From the sequence record MZ436830.1: a stretch of DNA of 64,000 bases; one strand, 5' to 3'. Shown piece after piece: positions 3,651 through 64,000 of the stretch. Position 1 is the first letter of the stretch, and each line of letters begins with the position of its first letter. The position numbers were made by a program, and so were the translations under genes. This DNA comes from Escherichia phage JK1. The notes beneath the pieces are model-generated. The model was given only the letters and a program-made list of their open reading frames with translations. It did not search any database and had not been told where the DNA came from.

Positions 3651-5069
3651 TTATGGATAGGTATAGATGATACCAGTTTCTAAAGCAGTTTTATGAATGA
3701 TGTATCCATTACGCGATTCTTGGACATCAACTTCTGGATAGTCTTTCATCATCTTCTGAAGAGTGTAACGATGCAGGTAGTATTTACTATCTGGATCTTC
3801 AGTTTTCCAATCTTTACCTTCTTCAGTCATTTTTTGAATTTCATCCATAACCCACCAACCGCACCAGATGTAAGCTGAGCTACGGTGTGGAAGAGGATGA
3901 ACATAAGGTAATTCACCTTCTGGTTCTGGAGCAACTTTATCAGTTACCTGAACTTGACCTTCTGCTGTAATAGTTTTGCTATCATAATCAGTAGCAGTAA
4001 CAATTGCCGTAACTTCAATAGTTTGACTTCCAATAGATGAGGTATCAACGGTATATACATTAGTTGACCCTTCTACAGGAGAAGAATCTTTCTTCCATGA
4101 ATACGCAATTTGCGCTTCTTCTGGAGCATCAGTGACATTAGCAGTAAATGTAGCCGAAGCATCTTGTTGAACGTTAATAGAAGGAGGAGTCAATGTAACC
4201 TGTGGATTCATTGTCTTCTTATTAACCGTTAATGATACTTCATTCGAAGTAACCTCCTTTTCATTGTAATTTTCTGCAGTTACTTGCGCTACACATTTAA
4301 TTCTTTTTACTCCACTTGTAGTTGGAGTATAGTTAAATGTAGCAGAAGTTGCTTCACCAATTTGAGAATCATCTACATACCACTGATACGTAGCAGATGC
4401 TCCACCAGGTTGAGAAGCTAAGGCAGCAGTAAATTGAACTGGGGTTCCAATTACTCCAGCTGGAGGACTATCAGGAGTTACTGCCAAGGTAGTTGTCTGT
4501 GTCTTTTTATTAACAGTCAGTGACACTTCATTAGAAGTAACTTCCTTTGCATCATAATCTGTCGCGGTTACTTGAGCTACACACTTAATTGTTTTAACTC
4601 CGCTTGCGTCAGGAGTGTAATTGAATGTAGCAGAAGTTGCTTCGCTTACAGGAGAACCGTCAACGTGCCATTGATACGTAGCAGACGCTCCTGGTGGCTG
4701 TGAAGCCAAGGCAGCAGTAAATTCAACGGCTGTTCCGATTACTCCTTCCGGAGGACTAGCAGGAGTTACGGCTAATGTAGTTGTTTGTGTCTTATTTTGA
4801 ACTGTGATAGTTGTACTAATTTCTGCTGTTTCAGGTTCAGATTCTGCAACTTGATTGGTTGCAACTACTTTAATAGTCTTTTGACCGGCAGGTCCTTTTA
4901 GTACATAACTAAAAGTTGCTGACGTTTCTTCCTGTGGAGCGTCGTCTACAGTCCAAGCATATGTAATAGGTCCATCTCCAGTTTGACCACTGGGTGTAGC
5001 AGTAAACTGCTGAGTCTGATCTATAACTCCAGTAGGTGTTTTAGGAGTTATATCAACTGTAAAAGCCAT
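3651..5069 (-). CDS. hoc: Highly immunogenic outer capsid protein Hoc (472 aa, four Ig-like modules plus capsid-binding C-terminus)
   Basis: Tandem Ig-like modules and C-terminus ...HRYTLQKMMKDYPEVD...IIYTYP; synteny; longer than remembered T4 Hoc. Confidence 0.85.
   Translation of the reverse strand: MAFTVDITPKTPTGVIDQTQQFTATPSGQTGDGPITYAWTVDDAPQEETSATFSYVLKGPAGQKTIKVVATNQVAESEPETAEISTTITVQNKTQTTTLAVTPASPPEGVIGTAVEFTAALASQPPGASATYQWHVDGSPVSEATSATFNYTPDASGVKTIKCVAQVTATDYDAKEVTSNEVSLTVNKKTQTTTLAVTPDSPPAGVIGTPVQFTAALASQPGGASATYQWYVDDSQIGEATSATFNYTPTTSGVKRIKCVAQVTAENYNEKEVTSNEVSLTVNKKTMNPQVTLTPPSINVQQDASATFTANVTDAPEEAQIAYSWKKDSSPVEGSTNVYTVDTSSIGSQTIEVTAIVTATDYDSKTITAEGQVQVTDKVAPEPEGELPYVHPLPHRSSAYIWCGWWVMDEIQKMTEEGKDWKTEDPDSKYYLHRYTLQKMMKDYPEVDVQESRNGYIIHKTALETGIIYTYP
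4221..4796 (-). repeat. Tandem duplication of a 288-bp Ig-like domain module inside hoc
   Basis: Two consecutive 96-codon units (4509-4796 and 4221-4508) nearly identical at protein level, with synonymous drift. Confidence 0.85.
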
Positions 5070-16171: not shown

Positions 16172-16202
16172 TTTGTGTTCCTCATGTTATGTCAGTAAGA
16201 CT

Positions 16203-16232
16203 ACTATAACACAACACGAGGGACTTGTAAAC
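16203..16232 (-). promoter_or_regulatory. Early promoter (GTTTAC-N18-TATAGT)
   Basis: -35 GTTTAC (16227-16232) and -10 TATAGT (16203-16208) on - strand; part of a 52-bp repeat. Confidence 0.5.
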
Positions 16233-24327: not shown

Positions 24328-24368
24328 GGTATTTTCCTCAGTAAGGGGCCGAAGCCCCTCATTTTATT

Positions 24369-24803: not shown

Positions 24804-25172
24804 TTATGCAACTTTAATCCAATTATCTAAATTTAATTCACCTTTGGCTTTCATTTTTTCAATCAAGAGGTCAGCGGTAATACGACCATTTTGATACCAC
24901 GTAACATCTTCAGAGTAACCAGTTTCTTTATCTTCATAAGTCTCACAACGAATTTTACCAATAATCAAAGTTTTCAATTCGTATGTATCTCCAGTAAAAA
25001 AGTTAGTTAACATTATTTTCCAAGAGAAATCATCAGAAGGACCTTCAGGAGTCATGCAACCTACAAATTCAAATTGTTCTTTGTATAAGTGCCACTGAAG
25101 TTCTTTAGTTTCGATAGCTTTATAGCCGTCGTGATCTTTACCTTTGATGTATGAGTTAAGATTGATTTTCAT
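24804..25172 (-). CDS. Hypothetical protein (122 aa)
   Basis: ORF with early-type promoter upstream. Confidence 0.6.
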   Translation of the reverse strand: MKINLNSYIKGKDHDGYKAIETKELQWHLYKEQFEFVGCMTPEGPSDDFSWKIMLTNFFTGDTYELKTLIIGKIRCETYEDKETGYSEDVTWYQNGRITADLLIEKMKAKGELNLDNWIKVA

Positions 25173-25199: not shown

Positions 25200-25229
25200 A
25201 TACTATCACAAAGGAACTATACTGTAAAC
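25200..25229 (-). promoter_or_regulatory. Early promoter candidate
   Basis: GTTTAC at 25224-25229, TAGTAT-like -10 18 nt away; ~30 nt upstream of ATG 25172. Confidence 0.4.
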
Positions 25230-28091: not shown

Positions 28092-28121
28092 ATAATATCA
28101 CAACTCTACCGTAAAGTAAAC
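28092..28121 (-). promoter_or_regulatory. Early promoter (GTTTAC-N18-TATTAT) inside inverted repeat
   Basis: -35 28116-28121, -10 28092-28097; GGTAGAG/CTCTACC inverted repeat around -10. Confidence 0.45.
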
Positions 28122-28602: not shown

Positions 28603-30017
<1,415 letters not shown>

Positions 30018-31388: not shown

Positions 31389-31416
31389 AAAGTCCTCATG
31401 CTATGTCAGTAAGATT

Positions 31417-31446
31417 ACTATAACACAACACGAGGGACTTGTAAAC
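31417..31446 (-). promoter_or_regulatory. Early promoter upstream of alc (copy of 52-bp repeat)
   Basis: GTTTAC (31441-31446) -N18- TATAGT (31417-31422). Confidence 0.5.
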
Positions 31447-33064: not shown

Positions 33065-34243
33065 TTAAAAGTATTTTTTAAAACTCATCATAACTTTATC
33101 ATCAACGTCATTATCAATCTGTGCTACAAGATAAGATGACAGTTCTACTTCTTGCGGCGCGGATTGAACATTATCAGAATTAAGATATTCACGAATCCAA
33201 GGATATGGATGTTTAACCGGAGCATCGGTAATTGGGCATGGAAGACCACACTGTTTCATACGAGATACAGTTAAGTAATCAATAAAGCTCCACATGCTAT
33301 TTGTATTTAATCCAGGAACATCGCCATCTTTAAATAAATGAACTGCCCAATCTTTTTCTTGGCGGTTAACTTCCATGAAAATATCAACTGCTTCTTGTTC
33401 ACACTCTTGAGCAATTTTAACCCATTCATCGCCATCAGTACCGGATTGAAGCTGACGAATAATATATTGAGTGCCTTTAAGGTGAAGCTGCTCATCACGT
33501 GCAATGAACTTCATAATCTTGGCATTACCTTCCATGATTTCCATGTTCTTGTGGAAGTTAAAGGTACACGCGAAAGATACATAAAAACGAATAGCTTCTA
33601 AGGCATTAATAACGTACAAACAGAGGTAAAGAGATTTCATTAAAGCACGTTTAGCTTCGGCTTCTTGTTTAATAGCTCGGTTTAAACGAAAGTCGGCATC
33701 AGGAGATTCTTTAGCTAGTTCTACAAATTCTTTAGCGTTTTCCCAATAACGAGTTTTAGTCAGAACATCATCATAATAACGTCCAATGGATTCAGCACGT
33801 TTCATAATAGCTTCATCTAATACAATCTCATCAAATACCTTCGACGGATCAGTATAAAGATTTCGCATGATATGTGTATATGAACGGCTGTGAATAGTTT
33901 CACTAAAAGTCCACGTAGCAACCCATGTATCAAGGCTCGGGTCTGAAATTAATGACATAAGTACAGCAGACGGCGCACGACCCTGAATGCTATCCAAAAG
34001 TGATTGATACTTCAGATTATTAGTAAAAATATTTTGCTGATACTGAGGAAGCTTATTAAACTGTGCAGCATCCATCATTAAGTTTACTTCTTCAGGCCGC
34101 CAGAAAAATGATAATTGCTTTTCGGTTAAATCTTCAAAAACTTTATGACGTTGAATATCATAACGCGCAATACCAAGGCCTGAACCAAAAAACATAGGTT
34201 CTTTTAAAACATCAACTGGATTTGTATTAAAAACTGTGCTCAT
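33065..34243 (-). CDS. nrdB: Ribonucleotide reductase small subunit (uninterrupted)
   Basis: 392 aa continuous ORF; ferritin-like R2 fold inferred; synteny. Confidence 0.9.
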   Translation of the reverse strand: MSTVFNTNPVDVLKEPMFFGSGLGIARYDIQRHKVFEDLTEKQLSFFWRPEEVNLMMDAAQFNKLPQYQQNIFTNNLKYQSLLDSIQGRAPSAVLMSLISDPSLDTWVATWTFSETIHSRSYTHIMRNLYTDPSKVFDEIVLDEAIMKRAESIGRYYDDVLTKTRYWENAKEFVELAKESPDADFRLNRAIKQEAEAKRALMKSLYLCLYVINALEAIRFYVSFACTFNFHKNMEIMEGNAKIMKFIARDEQLHLKGTQYIIRQLQSGTDGDEWVKIAQECEQEAVDIFMEVNRQEKDWAVHLFKDGDVPGLNTNSMWSFIDYLTVSRMKQCGLPCPITDAPVKHPYPWIREYLNSDNVQSAPQEVELSSYLVAQIDNDVDDKVMMSFKKYF

Positions 34244-34294
34244 AAATTTTCCACTTAGTTAATAGATAGTGACTCGTCCATGAGTCAAATTATA

Positions 34295-36559
34295 TCATAA
34301 TTTACAGGATGAACAATCTTCAGCTTTTGGAGTTTCTATTTCATAATCATCAGTACCAGAACCATCGCGGGTATTATGATAATAGAAATTTTTTCCGCCA
34401 AAATACCAAAAATACAAAAGGTCATCAATCATTATTGACATTGGAACCTTTCCTTTTGGAAAAATCTGCGGGTCATAATATGTATTCGCCGAAGCTGATT
34501 GACAAACCCATTTCAGCATAATAGCTACCTGCGTAAGATAAGGTTTATTACCTTTCTTAGCTAATTTCCATGTATAATCATAGAGGTCTATGTTATGCTC
34601 AATATTGGGCACGACTTGATTAAAGGAGCCCTCTTTTGATTCTTTAACAGAGACTGGTCCACGTGGAGGCTCGATACCGTTTGTACTGTTAGAAACTTGG
34701 GAAGATGACTCACATGGCATAAGTGCTGATAATGTGCTATTACGGATGCCAAAGAGCTTAAGGTCTTCCCGCAGCGACGACCAGTCACAAACGTATTTTG
34801 GAGCTGCGATTTGGTCAATCTTTTTATTGTACCAGTCGATAGGTAATTCGCCTCGAGACCAACGAGTGTCTGAATAATATTCGCAAGGTCCTTTTTCTTT
34901 GGCGAGCTTAATGGATGCTTTAATGAGTCCATACTGTAATCTCTCAAATAGTTCATGTGTTAAATCGTTAGCATCTTCATAAGAAGCAAAGTTACTTGCC
35001 AGCCAAGCTGCATAGTTAGTAACACCTACACCAAGGTTTCGACGCTTTTTAGCTTTTTCTGCTTCAGGAACTGGATATCCTTGGTAATCCAAAAGATTAT
35101 CAAGAGCACGAACTTGAACTTCTGCCAATTCATTAATTTTATCTTGGTCTTGCCAATCGAAGTTATCCAGCACAAATGCAGATAACGTGCACAATCCAAT
35201 TTCAGCATCGGGGCTATTCACATCATTTGTTGGAATAGCAATTTCACAGCACAAGTTACTCTGACGAATAGGTGCCTTTTCACGAATAAATGGAGTATAG
35301 TTATTCGTATTATCAATGAACTGTACATAAATCCTTGCTGTTCCTGAGCGTTCAGTCATGAGCAATTCAAATAGTTCACGGGCTTTAATACGCTTTTTAC
35401 GAATATTAGGATCTTTTTCTGCTGCTTCGTATAATTCACGGAAACGGTCTTGGTCTTTAAAATAAGAATAATAAAGCTCGCCACCCATTTCATGCGGACT
35501 GAACAAAGTAATGTAGTCGTTCTTTCCAAAACGTTCCATCATCAAATCATTCAGTTGAACACCATAATCCATATGACGAATGCGGTTTTCTTCTACGCCT
35601 TTGTTATTTTTCAAAACGAGAAGATTTTCAACTTCCAAATGCCAAATAGGATAATAAGCAGTAGCAGCGCCGCCACGAATTCCACCCTGTGAACATGATT
35701 TAACTGCAGTCTGAAAATGTTTCCAAAAAGGAATAACACCAGTATGACGTACTTCACCCATGCCAATCTTAGAACCTTCGGCACGAATCATACCAACGTT
35801 AATACCAATTCCAGCACGTTTGGAGATATATTCAACAATTGAAGCGGAAGCCTTATTGATAGACTTTAATGAATCACCTGCCTCAATAACAACACATGAA
35901 CTAAACTGTCGAGTCGGAGTACGACAACCAGCCATAATAGGAGTTGGTAATGAAATCTGTCGAGTAGATACTGCTTCATAAAAACGGATAACGTGTTTTA
36001 ATCTATCAACAGGTTCATCTTGATGCAGTGCCATTCCAATAGTCATAAATGCAAACTGTGGAGTTTCATAAATTTGACCAGTGGTTTTATCTTTAACTAA
36101 ATATTTTTCTTTTAATTGCATCGCCCCGGAATAAGTAAATTCCATATCCCGCTCGTGCTTAATTTTTGATTCTAAAAATGTAATTTCTTCTGCTGAATAT
36201 TTTGACAATAATTCAGGGTCATATTTACCTGCATTTACACAATAAGAAATATGGTCAATAAATGAACGTGGTTCATACTGCCCATAAACATGCTTACGAA
36301 GAGCGAACATTAAACAACGTGCAGCTACATATTGGTAATCAGGCTCTTCAACCGAAATAGAATTCGCAGCAGCCTTAATGACAATAGTCTGAATATCATC
36401 AGTTGTCATTCCATCACGGAGATAAGATTTAATATTTTCATATAATTCATAAGGATCTACTGATGTTCCCTCAGCTGCCCAAGATAAAACTTTAATAATT
36501 TTTTGTGGGTCAAAGCTCTGAGAAACACCACTACTTTTGATAACATTAATTAATTGCAT
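34295..36559 (-). CDS. nrdA: Ribonucleotide reductase large subunit
   Basis: 754 aa; class I RNR; synteny. Confidence 0.9.
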   Translation of the reverse strand: MQLINVIKSSGVSQSFDPQKIIKVLSWAAEGTSVDPYELYENIKSYLRDGMTTDDIQTIVIKAAANSISVEEPDYQYVAARCLMFALRKHVYGQYEPRSFIDHISYCVNAGKYDPELLSKYSAEEITFLESKIKHERDMEFTYSGAMQLKEKYLVKDKTTGQIYETPQFAFMTIGMALHQDEPVDRLKHVIRFYEAVSTRQISLPTPIMAGCRTPTRQFSSCVVIEAGDSLKSINKASASIVEYISKRAGIGINVGMIRAEGSKIGMGEVRHTGVIPFWKHFQTAVKSCSQGGIRGGAATAYYPIWHLEVENLLVLKNNKGVEENRIRHMDYGVQLNDLMMERFGKNDYITLFSPHEMGGELYYSYFKDQDRFRELYEAAEKDPNIRKKRIKARELFELLMTERSGTARIYVQFIDNTNNYTPFIREKAPIRQSNLCCEIAIPTNDVNSPDAEIGLCTLSAFVLDNFDWQDQDKINELAEVQVRALDNLLDYQGYPVPEAEKAKKRRNLGVGVTNYAAWLASNFASYEDANDLTHELFERLQYGLIKASIKLAKEKGPCEYYSDTRWSRGELPIDWYNKKIDQIAAPKYVCDWSSLREDLKLFGIRNSTLSALMPCESSSQVSNSTNGIEPPRGPVSVKESKEGSFNQVVPNIEHNIDLYDYTWKLAKKGNKPYLTQVAIMLKWVCQSASANTYYDPQIFPKGKVPMSIMIDDLLYFWYFGGKNFYYHNTRDGSGTDDYEIETPKAEDCSSCKL

Positions 36560-37093: not shown

Positions 37094-37950
37094 ATTGCCA
37101 TTTTCCCTTTAATTGCTGGATGCGATTCATAATTTTCAAGGATAAAATCTTTCGGTTTCATGTATTCAGTTAACCAGTAAAGCTGTGTTTCGGTGTCACA
37201 ATTTCCAAACTCTATAGGCCAATCAATTTTAAGTTCACATAGTTCTTTAGGCTCACGACGTAAAATTTCTTTACATTGCTCAGTATGATTCATATAGATG
37301 TGAGTATTACCACCAGAAAATATCAAATCTCCTGGGATAAGATTACACATCTTAGCCACAATATGCGTCAAGGCAGCGTACGAGGCAATGTTGAATGGCA
37401 AGCCCAAGAAAACATCTACACTTCTTTGGTACCATTGTAAATCAAGATAACCATTACGCACATTAAACTGATAGAACATATGACAGGGCGGTAATGCCAT
37501 TTGATTGATTTCAGCTGGATTCCATGCTGAAACGATTTGACGTCGATCAGTTGGTAATTTTTTAATACGATCAATAGTTTCAACTAATTGATCCACACCA
37601 CCGAAATCACGCCATTGTTTACCGTATATAGGACCAAGTTCACCACTATGATATCCTAGGTCTTTAGCCTGGTTTTCATAGTTATCGTCCCAAATAGTTT
37701 TACCTTGAATAAGACTACCATGAGTGCGAAGACGTAAATCATTAACATTGGTAGAACCGGAAATAAACCATAAAAGCTCAGCAATGCATGCATTCCAGGC
37801 GAGCTTCTTAGTTGTTACTGCAGGAAAACCTTTGGTTAAATCCCATCGTAATTTAGTACCGAACAAAGCAATTGTTCCTGTGCCCGTTCGGTCATCGGTT
37901 TCATAGCCATTTTCAAAAATGTCTTTAATTAAATCTTGGTATTGTTTCAT
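37090..37950 (-). CDS. td: Thymidylate synthase (uninterrupted, no intron)
   Basis: 286 aa continuous ORF; active-site LPPCH; C-terminal ...[10 protein letters not shown]. Confidence 0.95.
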
Positions 37951-37994
37951 TTAGTACCTTATATAAATTATAATACATTTTATGAAGCTAATAA

Positions 37995-38342
37995 TTAATA
38001 CGGTTTAGCATCAAATTTTCTCTCAATTTCAGGCGTGAAATATAATTCTTTACCGCGTTTGGAAAAGCGACCAATAATATGATAATTATTCTCATCAAAC
38101 GTAATATTACCAATATCCATAGCTTTCAACCAAATATCGATATTTCTATCCAGCTTTATGTCAAAATTCCAATACGGAGAACTATTACCGAAAATACTGC
38201 AAGCGGATTCAGTGAAACAGCTACTATAAATCTTGTCTTTAGGAACTACTAATTGATAGACACCTTTAATAAACTGAGGACCCTGCCACTTTGGCTGTTT
38301 CTCGTCTTTTTCTAACAGAATAGGGTAATAATTAAAATTCAT
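37995..38342 (-). CDS. Hypothetical protein (115 aa) between frd and td
   Basis: ORF with ATG; no recognisable motif. Confidence 0.55.
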   Translation of the reverse strand: MNFNYYPILLEKDEKQPKWQGPQFIKGVYQLVVPKDKIYSSCFTESACSIFGNSSPYWNFDIKLDRNIDIWLKAMDIGNITFDENNYHIIGRFSKRGKELYFTPEIERKFDAKPY

Positions 38343-38361
38343 ATTTCCGCCACGCGTTATT

Positions 38362-39188
<827 letters not shown>

Positions 39189-39199
39189 ATTATCTCCTA

Positions 39200-39532
39200 T
39201 TAAAAAGGATCAGGAACATATCCGCTAGCTTTAATCATTTTAATTAACGTTAACATTCCTTTGTTAACTGCTCGTGAGATTTCATCAAAAACTTCATCAC
39301 TAAAAAGTTCTAACACGCCCTTCTGAACTTTTAATTTACAGCCAACAATTTCTTCATCGCCTATAGTAAATTCATTACCACCAATTCCACCGAAAAACTT
39401 AATTACACCAGTTAACTGTCTTCCACGAGAATATGGGTCGTGTGATAAAGTAATATGAGTCACCCCGGGTACAGTTTTAAATTGGCAGCGAATATTTACT
39501 TGTGAAATTCCAGTTACATGAATGTCAGACAT
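39200..39532 (-). CDS. Hypothetical protein (110 aa)
   Basis: ORF. Confidence 0.6.
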   Translation of the reverse strand: MSDIHVTGISQVNIRCQFKTVPGVTHITLSHDPYSRGRQLTGVIKFFGGIGGNEFTIGDEEIVGCKLKVQKGVLELFSDEVFDEISRAVNKGMLTLIKMIKASGYVPDPF

Positions 39533-39542
39533 AATATTTTCC

Positions 39543-39785
39543 TCAAATAGACTTTTTCACAATTTTCCAATCAGCTTTAAACTGATCGACGTCAGAGTGA
39601 TAAATCCAAAATCCTGCGCTTTCACCGTCTTCATAAAGCGGACACCCATCACATTCATCTTCCCATCCCATGCCACGTAAAAGGTGTTCAGCTTTTTCAA
39701 CAAGTTCAGAATCTTTACCGATGATATTAAAATACCATTTACCTCTAACTTCCGAATCTTTGATGCTCTGACGTTGTAATCTCAT
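39543..39785 (-). CDS. Hypothetical protein (80 aa)
   Basis: ORF with GAGGAG RBS and early promoter. Confidence 0.6.
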   Translation of the reverse strand: MRLQRQSIKDSEVRGKWYFNIIGKDSELVEKAEHLLRGMGWEDECDGCPLYEDGESAGFWIYHSDVDQFKADWKIVKKSI

Positions 39786-39811
39786 TTTATTCTCCTCAAG
39801 TTGATAAGGCT

Positions 39812-39841
39812 ATAGTATCATTACCATAGCCCGTTGTAAAC
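39812..39841 (-). promoter_or_regulatory. Early promoter (GTTTAC-N18-TACTAT) inside inverted repeat
   Basis: -35 39836-39841, -10 39812-39817; GGCTAT/ATAGCC inverted repeat. Confidence 0.45.
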
Positions 39842-39843
39842 AA

Positions 39844-40104
39844 TTATTTTTGAATTTTATCGAGCCACTTACCAAGCTTAATCATTTCTTTAGTAGCCTT
39901 TTCCATACTTCTGAACTTGACCAATAGAGGATAGGTATCGACACCCATAACTAAACTGGTTACAAGACTGTGTTCACCCACAAGCCATAACGAATACGTT
40001 TGAATATCGAGCCCGTAATTTCTGTCTTTATGGACCCGTACACCCATCACTTCAAATTTCTCACTAGCTTTTTCTACCGCATCCAGGAAATCATCTTTAG
40101 TCAT
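39844..40104 (-). CDS. Hypothetical protein (86 aa)
   Basis: Start moved to internal ATG 40104 to avoid 41-nt overlap. Confidence 0.5.
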   Translation of the reverse strand: MTKDDFLDAVEKASEKFEVMGVRVHKDRNYGLDIQTYSLWLVGEHSLVTSLVMGVDTYPLLVKFRSMEKATKEMIKLGKWLDKIQK

Positions 40105-40105
40105 A

Positions 40106-40486
40106 TTAGGCCTTAAAAGTTTTTCGCAAAAGTTCAATGATTTCATCTACATTGTTTTCATCTACAATGCAGTGAATTTTTGTTACGCCAGAAACCTTGT
40201 CTTTGACTTCATTTTCTTCAGAAGTCGGTTCTTTATACTCACGAAAACAATGAAATTCATCTTCGCAAATTTCTAAAAGTCTATCTTTGAGGTAAAAATG
40301 CTTTCCATTTGCGCATTCAATGTGTTTTACTGCTTTATATCCATTAGCGACGGAAACTTCTTTAACTTCAAACCATCCGCCATTATCTCGAATAGCTTTA
40401 ACGATTGATGAATTAGAACGTGGGCTATAATTAATAAATGTATCAATAAGTCTTGGAACAAGTTCATACTTTTTGCCAATATACAT
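40106..40486 (-). CDS. Hypothetical protein (126 aa)
   Basis: ORF. Confidence 0.6.
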   Translation of the reverse strand: MYIGKKYELVPRLIDTFINYSPRSNSSIVKAIRDNGGWFEVKEVSVANGYKAVKHIECANGKHFYLKDRLLEICEDEFHCFREYKEPTSEENEVKDKVSGVTKIHCIVDENNVDEIIELLRKTFKA

Positions 40487-40530: not shown

Positions 40531-40761
40531 TTATTGTTCAATCAGTCCCATGTAAAATTCTGCGTCTTCAGAATCCATGCCGTCACAATACTCATTAGCC
40601 ATAAAGCGGGTGAGGTCTTCAAGAGGACCTTCAATGACAATAGAAAAATTGCAATAATTGGGATCATCGTGAATACTTGTGATACTAAGCTCAGGATAAC
40701 GATTACGAATAATTTCTTCAATATATTCAAAATCAACGATGTCAATATCAACTTTAGCCAT
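40531..40761 (-). CDS. Hypothetical acidic protein (76 aa)
   Basis: ATG 40761 with AAGAGGAAA RBS. Confidence 0.55.
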
Positions 40762-40804
40762 ATTATTTTCCTCTTTAATCATCAGCAGTATTGCCGATAG
40801 TTGT

Positions 40805-40834
40805 ATAGTACCACAGTCCTTGTGGTATGTAAAC
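40805..40834 (-). promoter_or_regulatory. Early promoter, member of repeated promoter-leader cassette
   Basis: GTTTAC (40829-40834) -N18- TACTAT (40805-40810) with conserved GTGGTACTATACAACTATC block. Confidence 0.5.
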
Positions 40835-40845
40835 TGTTTTGTGAA

Positions 40846-40884
40846 AAAATTTTTGAAATAAAAAAGGGGACCCTAGAGGTCCCC
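40846..40884 (-). terminator. Intrinsic terminator after gene 32
   Basis: GGGGACC-CUAGA-GGUCCCC hairpin then UUUUUUAUUU on - strand. Confidence 0.75.
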
Positions 40885-41815: not shown

Positions 41816-41890
41816 TTTTATTTCCTTTTTAATTTAATTAACAGTTGGTGCTATGACGATGTATGACCTCATAGCTGGTCAGTGAGATAA
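41816..41890 (-). promoter_or_regulatory. Gene 32 translational operator (pseudoknot region plus AU-rich unstructured leader)
   Basis: Leader reads ...CACUGACCAGCUAUGAGGUCAUACAUCGUCAUAGCACC...UUAAUUAAAUUAAAAAGGAAAUAAAAAUG, as remembered for the T4 gp32 autoregulatory site. Confidence 0.6.
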
Positions 41891-41891
41891 T

Positions 41892-41914
41892 TATAATCTA
41901 TTTATAATAAGCAA
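41892..41914 (-). promoter_or_regulatory. Nested middle (MotA box TTGCTTA -12- TATAAT) and late (TATAAATA) promoters for gene 32
   Basis: - strand reads ATTGCTTATTATAAATAGATTATAAT; TATAAATA at 41899-41906. Confidence 0.55.
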
Positions 41915-49907: not shown

Positions 49908-52900
49908 ATGGCTACTTTAAAACAAATACAATTTAAAAGAAGCAAAACCGCAGGTGCACGTCCTGCTGCTTCAGTATTAGCCGAAGGTGAATTGGCTATA
50001 AACTTAAAAGATAGAACAATTTTTACTAAAGATGATACAGGAAATATCATTGATCTAGGTATTGCTAAAGGCGGTCAAATTGATGGAAATGTAACTATTG
50101 ATGGAACTTTACGCGTCAATGGACCAATAAACAACTTTGGAAATTTTTCTACAAGTGGTACTATTACGGCAAGTAATATTGTTTCTGCTACAGTATTCAG
50201 ATCAACATCCGGTTCATTTTATACAAGAGCAATAAATGATACTGCAAATGCCCATCTTTGGTTTGAAAATACAAATGGCTCAGAACGTGGCGTTTTATAT
50301 TCAAAACCGCAGTCTGAAAATGAAGGCGTAATTACAATGCGTGTTCGTCAAGGAACCGCTGCGGGAGCTCAAAATTCAGAATTTCATTTCATTTCTACTG
50401 ATGGCGGTATCTTCCAGGCACGCAAATTAACTGCTTTAACTTCTATTAGTACACCAACTATTAGTGTTAATTTAATTAATCATGATTCTAAAGCCTTTGG
50501 ACAATACGATTCACAATCTTTGGTTAACTATGTTTATCCTGGAACCGGTGAAACAAATGGTGTAAACTATCTTCGTAAAGTTCGTGCTAAGTCAGGCGGA
50601 ACTATGTGGCATGAAATCTGTACAGCTCAGACAGGACAAGCTGATGAAATGTCATGGTGGACTGGTAATACTCCTCAGTCTAAACAATACGGTATTCGTA
50701 ATGACGGACGAATGGCTGGACGTAATAGCCTTGCATTAGGTACATTCACTACAAATTTCCCGTCTAGTGATTATGGCAACGTCGGTGTAATGGGCGATAA
50801 ATATCTTGTTCTCGGTGACACTGTAACTGGCTTGTCATACAAAAAAACTGGTGTATTTGATCTAGTTGGCGGTGGATATTCTGTTGCTTCTATTACTCCT
50901 GACAGTTTCCGTAGTACTCGTAAAGGTATATTTGGTCGTTCCGAGGACCAAGGCACCACATGGATTATGCCTGGAACTAATGCCGCTTTCTTGTCTGTTC
51001 AAACGCAAGCTGATAATAACAATGCTGGAGACGGCCAGACGCATATTGGGTACAATGCTGGCGGTAAAATGAGTCATTATTTCCGCGGTAAAGGCAAAAC
51101 TAATATTAATACTCAGGAAGGTGTAGACGTTAACCCGGGTATATTGAAGTTAACCACCGGCGGTGAAAGTATTAGCTTTAATGCCGCAACTGGAAGTATT
51201 AATTCTACATTAGCTTTTCGTCTTAATAAAGGCATAATTATTGATGGACCTGATAATCAGGGATTCCAGTTTAACGCCCCGACGGCTGCAGATGGTACTA
51301 GAAGTATATACTGGAACAGTGGTACTCGCGCAGGTCAAAACAAAAGCCCTGTTACAGTTAAAGTGTGGGGTAATTCATTTAACGCATCGGGCGATCGTGC
51401 TCGTGAAACGGTTTTTGAAGTAGCTGATGGGCAAGGTTACCATTTTTATTCTCAGCGAGTTGCTCCCGGATCAGGTTCTACTGTCGGACCTATTCAATTT
51501 CGAGTTAATGGTGGTTTATTAACTTCTGGTGGTATTACATCATCTGGTTCTATTGTTACTGAATCAAGTTTAGTTGCCAATAATGGCATGTCAGTAAATG
51601 GTCAGGCTAAATTTGGCGGAACAGCAAACGCACTGAGAATTTGGAACGCTGAATACGGTGTTATTTTCCGTCGTTCTGAAAGTAACTTTTACATTATTCC
51701 AACCAATCAAAATGAAGGCGAAAGCGGAGACATTCATAGCTCTTTGAGACCTGTAAGAATAGGATTAAACGATGGCATGGTTGGGTTAGGAAGAGATTCT
51801 TTTATAGTAGATCAAAATAATGCTTTAACTACGATAAACAGTAACTCTCGCATTAATGCCAACTTTAGAATGCAATTAGGGCAGTCGACATATATTGATG
51901 CAGAATGCACTGATGCCGTTAGACCTGCAGGGGCTGGTTCATTTGCCTCGCAAAATAATGAAAACGTCCGTGCTCCGTTCTATATGAATATTAATCGCAC
52001 AGATACAAGTACTTACGTTCCAATTGTTAAACAGAGATACGTACAAAATAATAGTTGCTATTCTATTGGTACTTTAATAAATGGCGGTAACTTCAGAGTT
52101 CATTATCATGAAGGTGGTGATGGCGGTTCTACTGGCGCGATTATAAAGGATTTAGGTTGGGAATTTAATAAAAACGGTGATTTTTACTCTCCTGGTAAAT
52201 TAGGTGCTGGAAATATTCGTATCGGAACAGACGGTAATATTACGGGTGGTTCTGGTAATTTTGCTAACTTGAATACCACATTAAACCGTAAGGTCAATTC
52301 CGGATTTGTAACATACGGTGCAACTGCTGGATGGTATAAATTCGCTACAGTAACGATGCCACAATCTACTTCTACTGTTTCATTTACTATAACTGGTGGT
52401 AAAGGATTTAATACTGGACTGTTTACACAGTGTGCTATAACAGAAATTGTTCTTCGTACTGGTAATGACCGCCCAGCAGGTTTAAACGCCGTGATGTATA
52501 CCAGAACAGCTGCAGGTCTTACTGATATTGCTGTAGTTAATACCTCAGGAAATACATATGATATCTATGTTGAATCGGGTACTTATGCCAACCAATTAGC
52601 TTATACTTGGCATACAGTTGATAATGCTACCGTAGAAGTTATCGGCGCTTTTGGTCCTACTCAAAACCCAGTAGATTCTTTGCCAGTTGATCATGTTAAA
52701 GGCCAAGTAGCTAACATGCTTAACAACCTAGTAGACACTGGTAAAGTAAAACGCTATGTAGCAGAGTCGGAAATTGCTATTAATAACCCAACTGGTATTC
52801 GTATTACGAGTAATTATGATAGATCAGGTTCTAATTCCGTTTTATTTCGAAATGACGGTGGAAGCTTCTATATTTTACTGACCGACAAAAACTCTTCAGA

Positions 52901-53846
52901 CGGCGATAATAAAGCAACTGAAGGTGATTGGAATGGAAAACGACCATTTTCAATTGATATGACTGCTGGTACTGTTCGTCTTGGCGAAAATACTTCTTTT
53001 GGTAAAGATGTTACTATTGATGGAAGCATTAATTCACGAGTTAAAGTTGTCGGACAGTGGAATGTTGGCTTTTCTGATATTTCAGATGTGACTCGTGACC
53101 GTTCTGCATTTTTAGTGAATACGGGTGGCATTTCCAAGACAAGTCAATCTTATTACCCGCTATTTTCTGGATACAGTTTTTTAACTGACGCAGGTTATCG
53201 CCAATCGTTTGAATTTGGATGGTTAGGTGTTTCTGGTACTTGGCGTCAAGGCATTATTCGCATGCGTGGTGACAACCCATCGGGGCAACAGGCTCGTTGG
53301 ACTTTTGATATGGACGGAACATTTTATGCTCCTATACTATCATGCGGATCTGCGAGAGCATTCGGTGTCAATACATCAAATGGTCTCGGTGGAAACAGTA
53401 TAACATTTGGTGATAGCGATACTGGTATTAAGCAAAATGGCGATGGATTATTAGACATATATGCGAACAGCGTACAAGTGTTCCGTTTCCAAAACGGTGA
53501 TTTGTACTCATACAAAAATATAAATGCTCCAAACGTTTATATTCGTTCTGATATTCGTTTAAAATCCAACTTTAAGCCTATCGAAAATGCACTTGATAAA
53601 GTTGAAAAACTTAACGGTGTCATTTACGATAAAGCTGAATACATCGGTGGAGAGGCAATTGAAACTGAAGCGGGTATTGTGGCTCAAACGTTACAAGACG
53701 TTTTACCAGAAGCTGTCCGTGAAACAGAAGACAGCAAGGGTAATAAAATACTCACTGTTTCTTCTCAAGCCCAGATCGCTCTTCTGGTTGAAGCTGTGAA
53801 AACGCTTTCTTCTCGTGTAAAAGAACTTGAATCTAAACTTATGTAA
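49908..53846 (+). CDS. 37: Long tail fiber distal subunit gp37 with C-terminal intramolecular chaperone domain
   Basis: 1312 aa; C-terminal ~107 aa carry the S-D-x-R-x-K style autocleavage/chaperone signature ([10 protein letters not shown]...). Confidence 0.9.
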
Positions 53847-53876
53847 AAGAGGGCTTCGGCCCTCTAAGGATTTTTA

Positions 53877-54662
53877 ATGGCAATTGTAGGTGTTCCTGGC
53901 TGGATTGGTGAATCTGCCGTGAATGAAACTGGACAACGTTGGATGGATGCTGCAATGAGAGCAGTCCGTGTTTCAGTTCCCGGTTGGATGAGCTCAATGG
54001 CCGGACAATCTAAAGAAGTATATTATAGCATTGGTGCTAGTAATTCTTATAATAAAGATACATTAATAAACTGGATAAAAGCACAAGGGTCCACGCCTGT
54101 TGTTATTACTATTACAGGAAATATTGTTTCTCAATCTACTGGTGTTCCATGCTTAGATTTTCCTAGCTCATTAACTAATGCATACGTGACACTTAATATC
54201 AATTCAGGCGTGCATGTTTGGGGCCGTGGCGGGAATGGCGGAAATAACTCTGCCGGTGGAGCAGGAGGAACTGCAATAAATAATGGAATTGGAACTAGAT
54301 TGCGTATTAACAACAATGGTGTTATCGCAGGAGGCGGTGGCGGCGGTGGAGGCGGATATTATTCTCCTTTTTCACAAATGAAATTGACTTTTGGCGGTGG
54401 CGGCGGTCGTCCATTTGGTGCTGCTGGCGGGTCTGCTAATATGGAACAGGGCGCTACTGCTGGTACTATTTCTGCACCTGGTAAAGGGTCTGTCAATGGT
54501 ATCTATAATGGCGGGAATGGCGGTGATGCTGGTGCCGCAGGTGGTAAATGTAATATTCGTGGGCAAGGATCAGAATATAACGGCGGTGCGGCCGGTAAAG
54601 CTGTTACTGGTAATGCTCCAACTTGGACTAAGGTTGGTACAATATATGGTTCAAGAGTATAA
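53877..54662 (+). CDS. 38: Receptor-recognising tail fiber adhesin gp38 (T2/T6 type)
   Basis: 261 aa; poly-glycine motifs (GGGGGGGGGYY, GGGGGRPFG, NGGNGGDAG) separating variable segments. Confidence 0.85.
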   Translation: MAIVGVPGWIGESAVNETGQRWMDAAMRAVRVSVPGWMSSMAGQSKEVYYSIGASNSYNKDTLINWIKAQGSTPVVITITGNIVSQSTGVPCLDFPSSLTNAYVTLNINSGVHVWGRGGNGGNNSAGGAGGTAINNGIGTRLRINNNGVIAGGGGGGGGGYYSPFSQMKLTFGGGGGRPFGAAGGSANMEQGATAGTISAPGKGSVNGIYNGGNGGDAGAAGGKCNIRGQGSEYNGGAAGKAVTGNAPTWTKVGTIYGSRV

Positions 54663-54694
54663 TTTTTGAATAAATATCCTTAAAAGGAGGGTCT

Positions 54695-57443: not shown

Positions 57444-58079
57444 TCACAGTTCAGATGCTACAGTGATTACTGCTTCAATGTTTTCTACTGAGCGTTTAAT
57501 GTCAAGATACACATTACCGTTTTTAGCGATTTTACATGACATTCCGATGTCAGTAAATTTCTGAATATGATGTTCCATCATTTTGTATCCAAAAATTCGC
57601 ATATTTCCATTGTTGTTAATTTCAAAATTACGAATTCCGTGAGTGCGTTTTTCTAAAATAGCAAGATAGTTACTGCGATAAGTTTCAACCTTTTTAAGAA
57701 CAAATCCATTTTCATCCAAAAGTTTTAACATGAGGTCTTTATCTTCTTCCATATCAGAAGTAATCTCGCGAGCTTTACGAGTTGCTCGTTTTTTCAGCAG
57801 TTCCGGAGCATTTTCCTGTGCGTATAAAGTTGCTGCGTTTGAAATAATATCCTGAGCTTCACCTGTAATGATTAATCCATCACCAGATTTCTCCACCAGG
57901 CCCTTTTTAATCAATACCCCAATATTACTATTAACTACTGCGTTACCTAAATCTGGATGCACCTCACGAACTTCTGCAGCTGTAATGAAATCTTTCTTAG
58001 CAATAGTAATTAAAATCGCAGCAGTTTTTTCATTCAGAACATCGTTAGAAGCTTTGATGATGTAAGTTACTTTAGACAT
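57444..58079 (-). CDS. motA: Middle-promoter transcription activator MotA
   Basis: 211 aa; matches remembered T4 MotA; early promoter upstream. Confidence 0.9.
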   Translation of the reverse strand: MSKVTYIIKASNDVLNEKTAAILITIAKKDFITAAEVREVHPDLGNAVVNSNIGVLIKKGLVEKSGDGLIITGEAQDIISNAATLYAQENAPELLKKRATRKAREITSDMEEDKDLMLKLLDENGFVLKKVETYRSNYLAILEKRTHGIRNFEINNNGNMRIFGYKMMEHHIQKFTDIGMSCKIAKNGNVYLDIKRSVENIEAVITVASEL

Positions 58080-58120
58080 TTTCTAATCTCCGTAATTCTG
58101 TATCAGTAGTTGATAGTTGT

Positions 58121-58150
58121 ATAGTACCACAGTATGCTTTGGTTGTAAAC
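58121..58150 (-). promoter_or_regulatory. Early promoter of motA (repeated cassette member)
   Basis: GTTTAC (58145-58150) -N18- TACTAT (58121-58126). Confidence 0.5.
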
Positions 58151-58160
58151 CGTTTTGTGA

Positions 58161-58201
58161 AAAAATTTTAAAATAAAAAAAGGGAGAGCCTCGGCTCTCC
58201 C
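58161..58201 (-). terminator. Intrinsic terminator between gene 52 unit and motA promoter
   Basis: GGGAGAGC-CGAG-GCUCUCCC hairpin followed by UUUUUUUAUUUU on - strand. Confidence 0.6.
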
Positions 58202-58206
58202 TAAAA

Positions 58207-59987: not shown

Positions 59988-60143
59988 TCAACTATTTTTA
60001 GAACCAATGTACGCGAATAATGATAAAATCGCTAATACGCCCTGAGCTGATGCTTGCAAAAATACTGAAGTTTCTCCAGTTATTACTGTTCCGATGCATA
60101 AAAAGAACCAACAGAAAAAGGCTATACCGTGAACAAATTTCAT
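59988..60143 (-). CDS. Small membrane protein (51 aa), paralog of adjacent Ac-like ORF
   Basis: Not in ORF track; shares ...VF.QA.AQG... core with neighbour. Confidence 0.45.
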   Translation of the reverse strand: MKFVHGIAFFCWFFLCIGTVITGETSVFLQASAQGVLAILSLFAYIGSKNS

Positions 60144-61282: not shown

Positions 61283-61396
61283 TCACATAAATCCAAAGTA
61301 AACGTTTAATACATCAATCATTAAAACGATTGGGAATATACTCAAAACTATTAGTATTATAACTACATTCCATATAGCTTTAATAATCTTTTTCAT
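61283..61396 (-). CDS. Small membrane peptide (37 aa)
   Basis: ATG 61396 after GGAGG leader; single TM helix. Confidence 0.45.
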   Translation of the reverse strand: MKKIIKAIWNVVIILIVLSIFPIVLMIDVLNVYFGFM

Positions 61397-61424
61397 TTTC
61401 TGTTCCTCCGTAGTTGATAGGGTA

Positions 61425-61454
61425 ATAGTACCACGGAAGAACAGTCTTGTAAAC
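61425..61454 (-). promoter_or_regulatory. Early promoter (repeated cassette member)
   Basis: GTTTAC (61449-61454) -N18- TACTAT (61425-61430), leader CAACUACGGAGG. Confidence 0.45.
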
Positions 61455-61639: not shown

Positions 61640-61903
61640 TCATAGTTCAATCTCAATGATTTCCAGGTGTTTTTGTTTTATTGCCTTTTTAACACAATCA
61701 TGGACTAAATATGACCATGAATCATTATATTCTCCATTAACTAATCGTTGGAGATCTTCACGTGATGATAAGTAAGGTTGATCTGATTCCCATTTTGATA
61801 AAAATACTGCAGTAAAAATATCTCCTTCACCTGTAGTTGAAGTCGTAAATGCAATAAATTCACCGGTAATTTTATGTTTAGCGTAATAAAATTTAAATTT
61901 CAT
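61640..61903 (-). CDS. Hypothetical protein (87 aa)
   Basis: ATG 61903 after GGAGGAG leader (ORF-track start further upstream lacks RBS). Confidence 0.55.
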   Translation of the reverse strand: MKFKFYYAKHKITGEFIAFTTSTTGEGDIFTAVFLSKWESDQPYLSSREDLQRLVNGEYNDSWSYLVHDCVKKAIKQKHLEIIEIEL

Positions 61904-61930
61904 TTTTACTCCTCCGTAGCTGATAGTTGT

Positions 61931-61960
61931 ATAGTACCACGGTCCTTGTGGTATGTAAAC
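61931..61960 (-). promoter_or_regulatory. Early promoter (repeated cassette member)
   Basis: GTTTAC (61955-61960) -N18- TACTAT (61931-61936), leader CAGCUACGGAGGAG. Confidence 0.45.
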
Positions 61961-61980
61961 CATTTTGTGAAATTTTTTTT

Positions 61981-62538
61981 TTAAATGGAAAGATACCATC
62001 CGTTGTAGTTGCTTTTTCTTACAACCTTACGAAGGTCTTCTCTGTCACCGATGAACTTCGGAGTGTACTGGATGACACCTGGATGAATTTCTTTAGTGTT
62101 GAATATAATTATACAGTCAGCGACTTGATGATTTAGAATGGGCCCTAGATTTATTCCAGAACCGTATGGATACTCTCCGCTGCATCCTGTTGTTACAGAA
62201 ATCCAACGTGAGTCAGTTTGATGTGTCTTAACTTCTACACGAAGCCCGCAGTATCTTGGATGCGCCAATACATCCCATGCGTATGTATACGGGTCATTAA
62301 CATCCTCTTGGCCTTTGTTAACATACCCGCTTAGCCAATCTGCTACAAAAAACTCTGCGTACACAGCGATACGACATCTTTCAATAACTTCTGCTTTATC
62401 CTGGTTCGGGTTTTGTTTTAAAGAGTATCTTGCTGTATCAGCAATTTTGACCTTCATTTCACTAGTCAAGTCACTGTTCGATAGGGTAAATGTCGGAATC
62501 TGAAATAGTCTCTGTAAACCCGGATTCGTTTTCTGCAT
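61981..62538 (-). CDS. denB: Endonuclease IV candidate
   Basis: 185 aa, size and position (between ndd cluster and rIIB) match T4 denB; AAGGAAAG RBS. Confidence 0.65.
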   Translation of the reverse strand: MQKTNPGLQRLFQIPTFTLSNSDLTSEMKVKIADTARYSLKQNPNQDKAEVIERCRIAVYAEFFVADWLSGYVNKGQEDVNDPYTYAWDVLAHPRYCGLRVEVKTHQTDSRWISVTTGCSGEYPYGSGINLGPILNHQVADCIIIFNTKEIHPGVIQYTPKFIGDREDLRKVVRKSNYNGWYLSI

Positions 62539-62800
62539 TTAGACTTTCCTTTTTACCACTGAGATAGGCGTTATATACTTTAAGAGTGCCATAATAAATT
62601 CGGTCATTTTCATCTAAAGACTCGCGGTCAAGTTCATCGAGCTCCTTTTTATCCATGACTATAACATCATTACAGTAAAGAAACCCAAGTTTTTCGTGAC
62701 CAAACTCAAATTTATTACAGTACACAATATTAGCGTGATGATTTCCGTGCAGTTTAATCTCTTTTATGTCGGAATCACCGATATTCATACAATAAATCAT
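62471..62800 (-). CDS. Hypothetical protein (109 aa)
   Basis: ORF; 3' end overlaps next gene by 68 nt. Confidence 0.5.
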   Translation of the reverse strand: MIYCMNIGDSDIKEIKLHGNHHANIVYCNKFEFGHEKLGFLYCNDVIVMDKKELDELDRESLDENDRIYYGTLKVYNAYLSGKKESLNAENESGFTETISDSDIYPIEQ

Positions 62801-62810
62801 AATTTTTCCT

Positions 62811-62840
62811 TAAAACAAAAGGGCCGAAGCCCTTTATTTT
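62811..62840. terminator. Bidirectional-looking hairpin terminator
   Basis: AAAAGGGCCGAAGCCCUUUAUUUU: stem-loop flanked by A and U runs. Confidence 0.5.
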
Positions 62841-63033: not shown

Positions 63034-63061
63034 AATTTTCCTTAGTTAAGGGCCGAAGCCC

Positions 63062-64000
63062 TTATTTAAATTGTTCAGTAACGTCTTCAACTACTTCGTA
63101 TTGGCAGGTACGCATTTTAGCATCGTTGTAATCAATCGGAATTGATACTACATCGCGAGGATGTACTTTAACTTTTACGACTCGACTGGTTGAACTGCCA
63201 AAGTGACGAATATAAGATTTAGAACACACATGCAGACCACGAGAACAAGTTTGTGTATCATCGTCATTTACACGAGTACGTGGCATTTTAACTACTTTAC
63301 CCGGACTGTTATCAAAGGTGTTTGAGTGACAGTCAAAGTAATTGCTACGAACTACTTTCCAAGCATAGAAGTAGCCATCTTCTGTAATTTCAATATCGTT
63401 TGCTACCAAGAAATCAAAGAGTCGAGATACTGCTTTTTGGCTCGGGTTTTCCAACAGATTTTCCAAGAACGGAAAATAAAATTCAAAGTTTTCGCCTTTT
63501 TCCATCGAATCGAGAATACGATCAACTAAACCAGACCGTAATTCAATATTTTGATAGAACAAGCTTCCACCTTCAATTCGAACATCGCCGGAAATATATT
63601 TTTCAACAGCGCGACGAACATTAATTTTTTGTGCCGCTTCTTCCAGCTTATCCGCTACAAGCAGATTAAGAATTTCCTGGAAGTTTGAATGAGTATTAGG
63701 AGTTGCGTTATAAGTTACACCGTCAACAGTAATTGAAATGAATTTTTTAGATGCATTCCAAATAATGTCAGATTTAGCAACTGGAGCAATAACTGCATCG
63801 CTATTAACTTTAACTGTAATATCACCACTAATAGTAACTTTAGGGCGTTTAGCTTCTTCAGCATTTTTCAAAACACGACGGATTGTGTCAACCGATACAT
63901 CCTTCCAATAAGCTAATTCCTGCTGAGTGTAATTACCACTTGAATACAATTTAACAATTTCAGCTTGTTCGTTTTTGGTCAGGCATTTAATATTGTACAT
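63062..64000 (-). CDS. rIIB: rIIB protein (complete CDS ending at window edge)
   Basis: 312 aa; ATG is the last three bases of the window (revcomp of cat 63998-64000). Confidence 0.85.
   Translation of the reverse strand: MYNIKCLTKNEQAEIVKLYSSGNYTQQELAYWKDVSVDTIRRVLKNAEEAKRPKVTISGDITVKVNSDAVIAPVAKSDIIWNASKKFISITVDGVTYNATPNTHSNFQEILNLLVADKLEEAAQKINVRRAVEKYISGDVRIEGGSLFYQNIELRSGLVDRILDSMEKGENFEFYFPFLENLLENPSQKAVSRLFDFLVANDIEITEDGYFYAWKVVRSNYFDCHSNTFDNSPGKVVKMPRTRVNDDDTQTCSRGLHVCSKSYIRHFGSSTSRVVKVKVHPRDVVSIPIDYNDAKMRTCQYEVVEDVTEQFK

Follow-up and report, generated by a model that had tools for sequence, protein, structure and literature searches.

Four short sequence blocks on the - strand of the window (the whole 64,000-nt stretch of DNA analyzed) are very probably sigma-70-dependent early (Pe) promoters of a T4-like coliphage, the copies of which also serve as homology patches for recombination. 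These cassettes precede a homolog of frd.3 (40785-40834), motA (58101-58150), a homolog of ndd.4 (61405-61454), and an 87-aa open reading frame (ORF) located ahead of the ndd.6 homolog (61911-61960). The sequence-only reading of this DNA, which took the cassettes for a mobile or recombinationally propagated promoter module, was essentially right in its interpretation. For T4 and its relatives, this promoter class is already known, and so is its use as a recombination module.

At all four sites, GTTTAC, an 18-nt spacer ending in GTGG, and TACTAT can be read on the - strand as described before, and the downstream ORFs (76-aa, motA, 37-aa, and 87-aa) are those named. In the sigma-70 register, every site reads TTTACA-N17-TACTAT with a TG at -15/-14 (i.e., an extended -10 TGn); the 18-nt spacer length is a consequence of the hexamer register chosen, since the sigma-70 register gives 17 bp. 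Three of the four copies share an exact 19-mer, GTGGTACTATACAACTATC, which has exactly three matches (40796-40814, 58112-58130, and 61922-61940), compared with none in 100 shuffled sequences even when three mismatches were allowed. Past its -10 hexamer, the 61.4 kb copy departs from the others and reads TACCCTATC before returning to the common sequence at CTATCAACTACGGAGG. The spacers of the 40.8 and 61.9 kb copies are nearly identical, as had been claimed, and differ at one of the 18 positions (ATACCACAAGGAC(T/C)GTGG).

A likeness confined to the -35 and -10 hexamers would have spoken against a shared module. Alignment revealed instead an extended block, which is longer than the sequence-only reading stated. 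A repeat search found three copies of 73 nt with 81-82% identity (40796-40868, 58112-58184, and 61922-61994), and the upstream part of the common block is an UP-like A/T tract. This extension takes the form (A/T)TTTCACAAAA(C/T)N-GTTTAC, with 0-1 mismatches at the three 73-nt sites, and may also be written as TTTTCACAAAAC-N-GTTTAC. In the frd.3 and motA copies, the likeness extends as far as the T-run of an intrinsic terminator. The window contains 12 matches to the looser pattern GTTTAC-N16-19-TANNAT (1.1 expected), and 11 of these 12 matches are on the - strand. No further hidden copies of the family were found in the 64-kb window, where only weak or distant relatives are present at 39841 and 24799. 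A second pair of early promoters (16179-16232 and 31393-31446, - strand) shows 96% identity over 54 nt, has the -10 hexamer TATAGT and a leader containing CATAACATGAGGA, and corresponds to T4 123093 and 136336. Pattern scans based on TANNAT overlook this pair.

The four sites, all on the - strand, differ in their surroundings. In the frd.3 promoter, GTTTAC (40834-40829) is followed by the spacer ATACCACAAGGACTGTGG and TACTAT (40810-40805), and the spacing places the predicted +1 at the A at 40798. The UP-like tract TCAAAAATTTTTTCACAAAACA (40835-40856) abuts the -35 hexamer, and the same tract is kept in the T4 promoter class. Farther upstream, the hairpin GGGGACCTCTAGGGTCCCC (40866-40884; -15.2 kcal/mol; none of 200 shuffles as stable) and the T-run after it make up an intrinsic terminator, which is predicted to end gene 32 transcription just ahead of the frd.3 promoter. 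This hairpin is flipped relative to T4 and three metagenomic relatives, which have GGGGACCCTAGAGGTCCCC; the sequences GGGGACCTCTAGGGTCCCC and GGGGACCCTAGAGGTCCCC are exact reverse complements. The ORF served by this promoter is the 76-aa frd.3 homolog (40531-40761; phrog_1764), the function of which is unknown.

The motA promoter has GTTTAC at 58150-58145, TACTAT at 58126-58121, and a predicted +1 at 58114. Its UP-like tract (..TTTTAAAATTTTTTCACAAAACG) occupies 58151-58172, and upstream of this tract is an intrinsic terminator, AGGGAGAGCCGAGGCTCTCCCT, followed by a T-run (58181-58202; -17.6 kcal/mol; z -4.35; none of 200 shuffles as stable). The matching position in the related phage R5505 is an annotated terminator. 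The motA gene (57444-58079; 211 aa) is preceded by a leader with GGAG 8 nt ahead of the ATG. The ndd.4 promoter, which reads TACTAT-TACCCTATCAACTACGGAGG, overlaps the 3' end of the preceding ORF, and neither an upstream terminator nor an evident stem-loop was found at this site (61454). It precedes the ndd.4 homolog, a 37-aa hydrophobic ORF (61283-61396; phrog_3098). The promoter of the 87-aa ORF has a predicted +1 at 61924 and the spacer ATACCACAAGGACCGTGG, which contains the inverted repeat TACCAC/GTGGTA. The 87-aa ORF itself (61640-61903; phrog_2390; unknown function) is variable among relatives; T4 lacks it, and phiD1 and teqsoen have a diverged allele. A Shine-Dalgarno sequence, GGAG or GAGG, lies 5-8 nt ahead of the ATG at all four sites (GGAG in three leaders). 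RNA structure in the four predicted 5' UTRs was no better than in shuffled sequences (z -1.55 to +0.79), which fits an open ribosome-binding site.

A 5-kb piece of the window has 96-98% identity to many T4-like coliphages, and the window belongs to a phage of the genus Tequatrovirus. T4 is collinear with the window from ~105.8 kb to the right end of its map at 168.9 kb. Several segments are present in T4 and missing from the window, namely segD, the nrdB and td introns with their endonuclease genes, nrdB.1 plus mobE, and segG; the corresponding points in the window are 681-742, 33567/33568, 34243-34299, 37398-37403, and 41878-41914. Segments that are extra relative to T4 are found at 29697-30011, 37953-38357, 38959-39521, 59990-60139, and 62552-62748. 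No match to T4 exists at the nucleotide level for the distal tail-fiber region (52273-54670; gene 38 and the end of gene 37), which is consistent with the known adhesin swapping in T-even phages. Within the region collinear with the T4 hoc gene, a tandem direct repeat of 288 nt with 79% identity is present at 4212-4787. In addition, a GGGGCCGAAGCCCC-type hairpin occurs at three sites in the window (24343-24360, 62818-62835, and 63047-63064), and the copy at 62818-62835 has a terminator score on both strands.

For comparison with T4, the complete T4 sequence was scanned with the same promoter pattern to locate orthologs. The T4 GenBank and RefSeq records hold no promoter annotation except for one note on Pe133295, and orthology was therefore set by sequence. 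Near-identical orthologs of the four cassettes are located at T4 146875 (frd.3), 163673 (motA; over a 151-nt block, this differs from the window only in a T/A run upstream of the UP-like tract), 166807 (ndd.4), and 167086 (ndd.6). Other T4 members of the subfamily lie ahead of imm.1 (27080), nrdC.8 (53943), nrdC.10 (55384), mobD.5 (58780), and e.8 (70696). The ndd.4 promoter of the window clusters with T4 166807, 53943, and 73572. Outside the fixed hexamers, identity within the subfamily averages 69%, compared with 39% among other early promoters. The sites form a tighter subfamily within the T4 early-promoter class, with the 61.4 kb copy falling in a sister cluster.

A T4 early promoter class with an extended consensus was reportedly described by Liebig and Rüger in 1989. 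The profile of 34 T4 sites gives a consensus from about -59 to +7, which consists of an A/T tract (~-59 to -37), GTTTACa, tGTGg, TAnnAT, and a..acTATCaaCT across the predicted start. All four window sites have GTTTACA where the class has GTTTAC(A/T), a 17-bp spacer with TGn and TAnnAT, an A/T-rich UP-like region at ~-40 to -60, and the conserved positions around +1. They are also found upstream of prereplicative genes, on the early-transcribed strand, and at positions orthologous to those in T4. Every sequence-level feature of the Pe class is present at the four sites. Such resemblance could also arise by pure convergence, with each copy separately selected toward an optimal sequence for the E. 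coli polymerase and no exchange between copies. The A/T tract, GTTTACa, tGTGg, TAnnAT, and cTATCaaCT are indeed common to most of the 34 otherwise unrelated T4 promoters, and the positions shared among T4 early promoters are known polymerase contact elements (PMC2988021; PMC2613000). These conserved elements reflect functional constraint and are not evidence for recombination; because they are a class-wide consensus, this part of the likeness offers no proof of exchange. The spacer is a different matter. Its conservation within the class as a whole is weak, and still the copies at 40.8 and 61.9 kb agree at 17 of its 18 positions. Considering this agreement together with the frd.3 spacer alleles and the T4 deletion junction described below, an explanation by convergence without exchange is quite unlikely.

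The frd.3 promoter provides one line of evidence. Between the window and T4, this promoter has identical flanks and unrelated spacers. The spacer in the window (ATACCACAAGGACTGTGG) is that of the ndd.6-region promoter, and the spacer in T4 (AAGCATAAAGCTTTATGG) is identical to that of the T4 nrdC.10 promoter. Four metagenomic relatives have a third type, that of e.8/imm.1 (ATCCTTGTCCTTCCATGG with its close variants). An IMG/VR scan with the frd.3 protein yielded only 10 loci, and allele frequencies were therefore obtained from three allele-specific 80-nt BLAST queries against the phage collection. Among ~480-500 records with the frd.3 leader, the window, T4, and third types were found in 84, 105, and 321 records, respectively, these figures being counts of database records and not of independent events. 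One orthologous promoter accordingly carries three very different spacers, each matching a different paralog, which is difficult to reconcile with convergence. At least two short-tract conversions from paralogous promoters are required to explain these alleles.

The ndd region supplies a second line of evidence. In place of the 87-aa ORF, T4 has the leader ATCAACTACTGATACGGATTTGGAGAATAAAATGAAAATC, which its imm.1 and nrdC.10 promoters also carry. The join between this leader and the final seven codons of the phiD1/teqsoen allele lies at the microhomology AAATGAAAATC. T4 lost the 87-aa ORF by way of this junction, which consists of the family leader and includes ~40 nt common to other T4 promoters, a further point that convergence does not account for. 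Only 113 records have the ORF at full length, and ~200 others have just the first 54 nt.

Gene content next to the cassettes also varies among relatives, a check that had been proposed in the sequence-only reading; ORFs flanked by cassettes are replaced or permuted, the exception being the motA copy, which has a conserved context. The homolog of gene 30.8 (24815-25155), located between promoters at 25229 and 24799, has ~50% identity to T4, whereas the flanking cassettes have 98-100%, and the transitions coincide with the start codon and the next GTTTAC. This segment is a sharply bounded mosaic. Among the 36 ends of homology breaks between the window and T4, five fall within cassettes, compared with 0.8 expected from the 2.2% of the window that the cassettes occupy (binomial p ~0.001). 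This test is rough, and part of the enrichment could mark where indels are tolerated (intergenic regions) rather than where they arise. More distant T4-like phages have frd.3, frd.2, the 100-aa ORF, and frd.1 in a permuted order, with frd.3 behind frd.2 and the 100-aa ORF. The small ORFs between gene 32 and frd (39200-40486) vary in content and order, and some close relatives have the 100-aa and 110-aa ORFs while others lack them. Taken together, the spacer alleles and the T4 junction support recombination between promoter copies, beyond what convergence alone would produce.

The mobility that the sequence-only reading offered as an alternative to recombinational propagation fares differently. 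Dispersed copies with variable ORFs between them might suggest a promoter-bearing, autonomous miniature mobile element (MITE- or integron-like) with its own transposase or integrase to move it, and an analogy to integron cassettes has been drawn for related promoter cassettes (PMC2839356). No transposase or recombinase associated with the four sites was found, and the copies have neither terminal inverted repeats nor target-site duplications. Moreover, all four copies are at positions orthologous to T4, and the exchange tracts are bounded by homology and not by fixed element ends. A transposon-like element was rejected for its lack of defined ends and target duplications and for the orthologous placement of all copies; we regard this explanation as having almost no chance of being correct. 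Recombination between copies is therefore the part of the earlier claim that stands, and autonomous mobility is the part that does not.

Inverted repeats are frequent in these promoters. Perfect inverted repeats of at least 7 bp that flank the -10 hexamer are found in 11 of the 34 T4 early promoters, compared with 2.2-2.8 expected (maximum 6-7 among 200 controls). The arms lie roughly at -27..-16 and -7..+3, and examples in the window are located at 28092-28121, 39812-39841, and 25200-25229. Because the upstream arm is outside the transcript, hairpin formation would be limited to DNA or read-through RNA. One may ask whether the spacer or leader contains an operator, in which TACCAC-N7-GTGGTA or ACAACTATC binds a regulator (phage or host) of a subset of early genes, for example during shut-off. 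The spacers of two sites (40834 and 61960) contain a 6-bp inverted repeat, T4 early promoters are enriched for inverted repeats around their -10 hexamers, and the mechanism of early-promoter shut-off is described as incompletely understood (PMC3014915). Nevertheless, the inverted repeats vary in sequence by promoter such that no single DNA-binding specificity fits, TACCAC/GTGGTA is missing from the motA and ndd.4 copies, and natural phages exchange the spacer for unrelated alleles. An operator of this kind is therefore very unlikely. A more speculative idea, also unlikely in our assessment, is that the 18-nt spacer is a swappable functional unit drawn from a pool of alleles that retune early promoters, with the inverted repeats around the -10 hexamer having an undescribed role in DNA or read-through RNA. 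If this were true, properties such as strength, Alt responsiveness, or shut-off timing could be retuned. The unit would be the spacer, in many cases a palindrome or small hairpin, with the invariant -35 and TGGTACTAT blocks on either side of it. Exchange between promoter copies would then be more than a by-product of homology.

Under the preferred explanation of Pe promoters that double as recombination homology, the alpha C-terminal domains of the sigma-70 holoenzyme would bind the A/T UP-like tract (about -59 to -37), with sigma region 4 contacting (G)TTTACA, region 3 contacting TG, and region 2 contacting TACTAT. Transcription would start at an A ~7 nt past the -10 hexamer, within the conserved cTATC, and would produce a short and largely unstructured leader (ATCAACTAC...) with a GGAG or GAGG Shine-Dalgarno sequence at its end. 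For the phage in the window, we infer promoter activity and start sites from T4 orthology and consensus spacing, and no usable RNA-seq start-site map of T4 was found in the literature. T4 early promoters are "uber" promoters that combine UP, -35, TGn, and -10 elements with extra consensus regions and are stimulated by Alt (Hinton 2010, PMC2988021). They are also extremely strong competitors for the host polymerase (PMC2988021; PMC2613000). The ADP-ribosylation of the alpha subunit by T4 Alt raises, rather than lowers, the activity of some early promoters (PMC2988021), and Alt may act on the window promoters in a similar manner. The Shine-Dalgarno sequence used most often in T4 is GGAG, which is also where the early RNase RegB cleaves (PMC3014915); by analogy, the GGAG in these leaders may also be the point at which RegB inactivates the early mRNAs. 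At the frd.3 and motA sites, the intrinsic terminator just upstream makes these two copies composite terminator-promoter cassettes, and would insulate the promoter from incoming transcription.

The copies share identical runs of 20-35 nt, which may act as recombination homology. Very short homologies suffice for T4 recombination (PMC9391042; PMC2839356), such that 20-35 identical bases should be ample substrate. The copies would thus be dispersed homology patches for the very active phage recombination system, which is presumably the pathway involved. Two outcomes are expected. Short tracts (e.g., the spacer) would be converted between copies, and small non-essential ORFs between cassettes would be deleted, replaced, or reordered.

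T4 early promoters have been argued to act as recombination linkers since 1994. This role was made explicit in 2010 (PMC2839356) and again in 2014 (PMC4122927), the latter at the same ndd locus. The presence of three spacer alleles at one orthologous promoter, each equal to the spacer of a different paralog, may be novel as a detail; no description of this polymorphism was found in the papers on T4 early promoters and PeSL (promoter-early stem-loop) cassettes that were examined. It is a clean natural case of ectopic conversion over short tracts and could serve to quantify such events in the large set of sequenced Tequatrovirus genomes. The gain for biology is small, as the polymorphism is a detail within a known picture. 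For annotation, four predicted transcription-unit starts and two predicted terminators can be marked in a T4-like genome, and the cassettes explain the variation in small ORFs around frd.3 and ndd between relatives.

Among known systems, the T4 Pe class shares with the window cassettes the UP-like tract, GTTTAC(A/T), TGn, TAnnAT, and the start region, as well as strand and genomic positions. There is no difference in kind; the frd.3 copy in the window has a different spacer allele from that in T4, and the copy at 61.9 kb is predicted to drive the 87-aa ORF, which is gone from T4. The UP-element promoters of E. coli (e.g., rrnB P1; Estrem et al. 1998, as cited in PMC2613000) likewise have an A/T-rich tract right upstream of the -35 hexamer. 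The tract TCAAAAATTTTTTCACAAAACA has about one mismatch to the full UP consensus, nnAAAWWTWTTTTnnAAAAnnn. Unlike promoters of the rrnB P1 type, those in the window are phage-encoded and join the UP element to an extended -10 and near-consensus hexamers.

PeSL cassettes were described in RB49 and phi1 (Arbiol et al. 2010, PMC2839356). In PST and T4, PeSLs have the consensus TTTACW-N17-TAYWAT and are associated with an exchange at ndd.4/.5 (Comeau et al. 2014, PMC4122927), a locus (Fig. 6A of that study) that corresponds to 61.4-61.9 kb of the window. All four window sites fit this consensus. In a PeSL, an A/T-rich tract and an early promoter lead into a Shine-Dalgarno sequence and the start codon of an ORF, and a stem-loop located either ahead of the promoter or inside it serves as terminator or attenuator. 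The order from A/T tract and promoter through Shine-Dalgarno sequence to start codon is found at all four sites. As with the window cassettes, PeSLs adjoin variable small ORFs and are proposed to provide homology for modular shuffling; an association with indels, replacements, or permutations between close relatives is seen at every window site except motA, which lies in a conserved and not a hyperplastic context. The stem-loop is the less consistent component. Clear terminators are present upstream at only two of the four sites (strong ones at 40834 and 58150), another site has a weak stem-loop, and 61454 has nothing convincing. The excision of mini-circles from neighboring PeSL copies is experimental for RB49/phi1 only (PMC2839356). 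Finally, the linkers of Botstein and the "morons" of lambdoid phages (as discussed in PMC2839356) offer two further parallels, namely conserved intergenic sequences that act as crossover points, and small genes with their own promoter and terminator that are gained or lost as units. Morons are thought to enter by illegitimate recombination with no shared flanking repeat, whereas the cassettes in the window have the same orientation as the surrounding early genes, and the shared promoter itself constitutes the homology.
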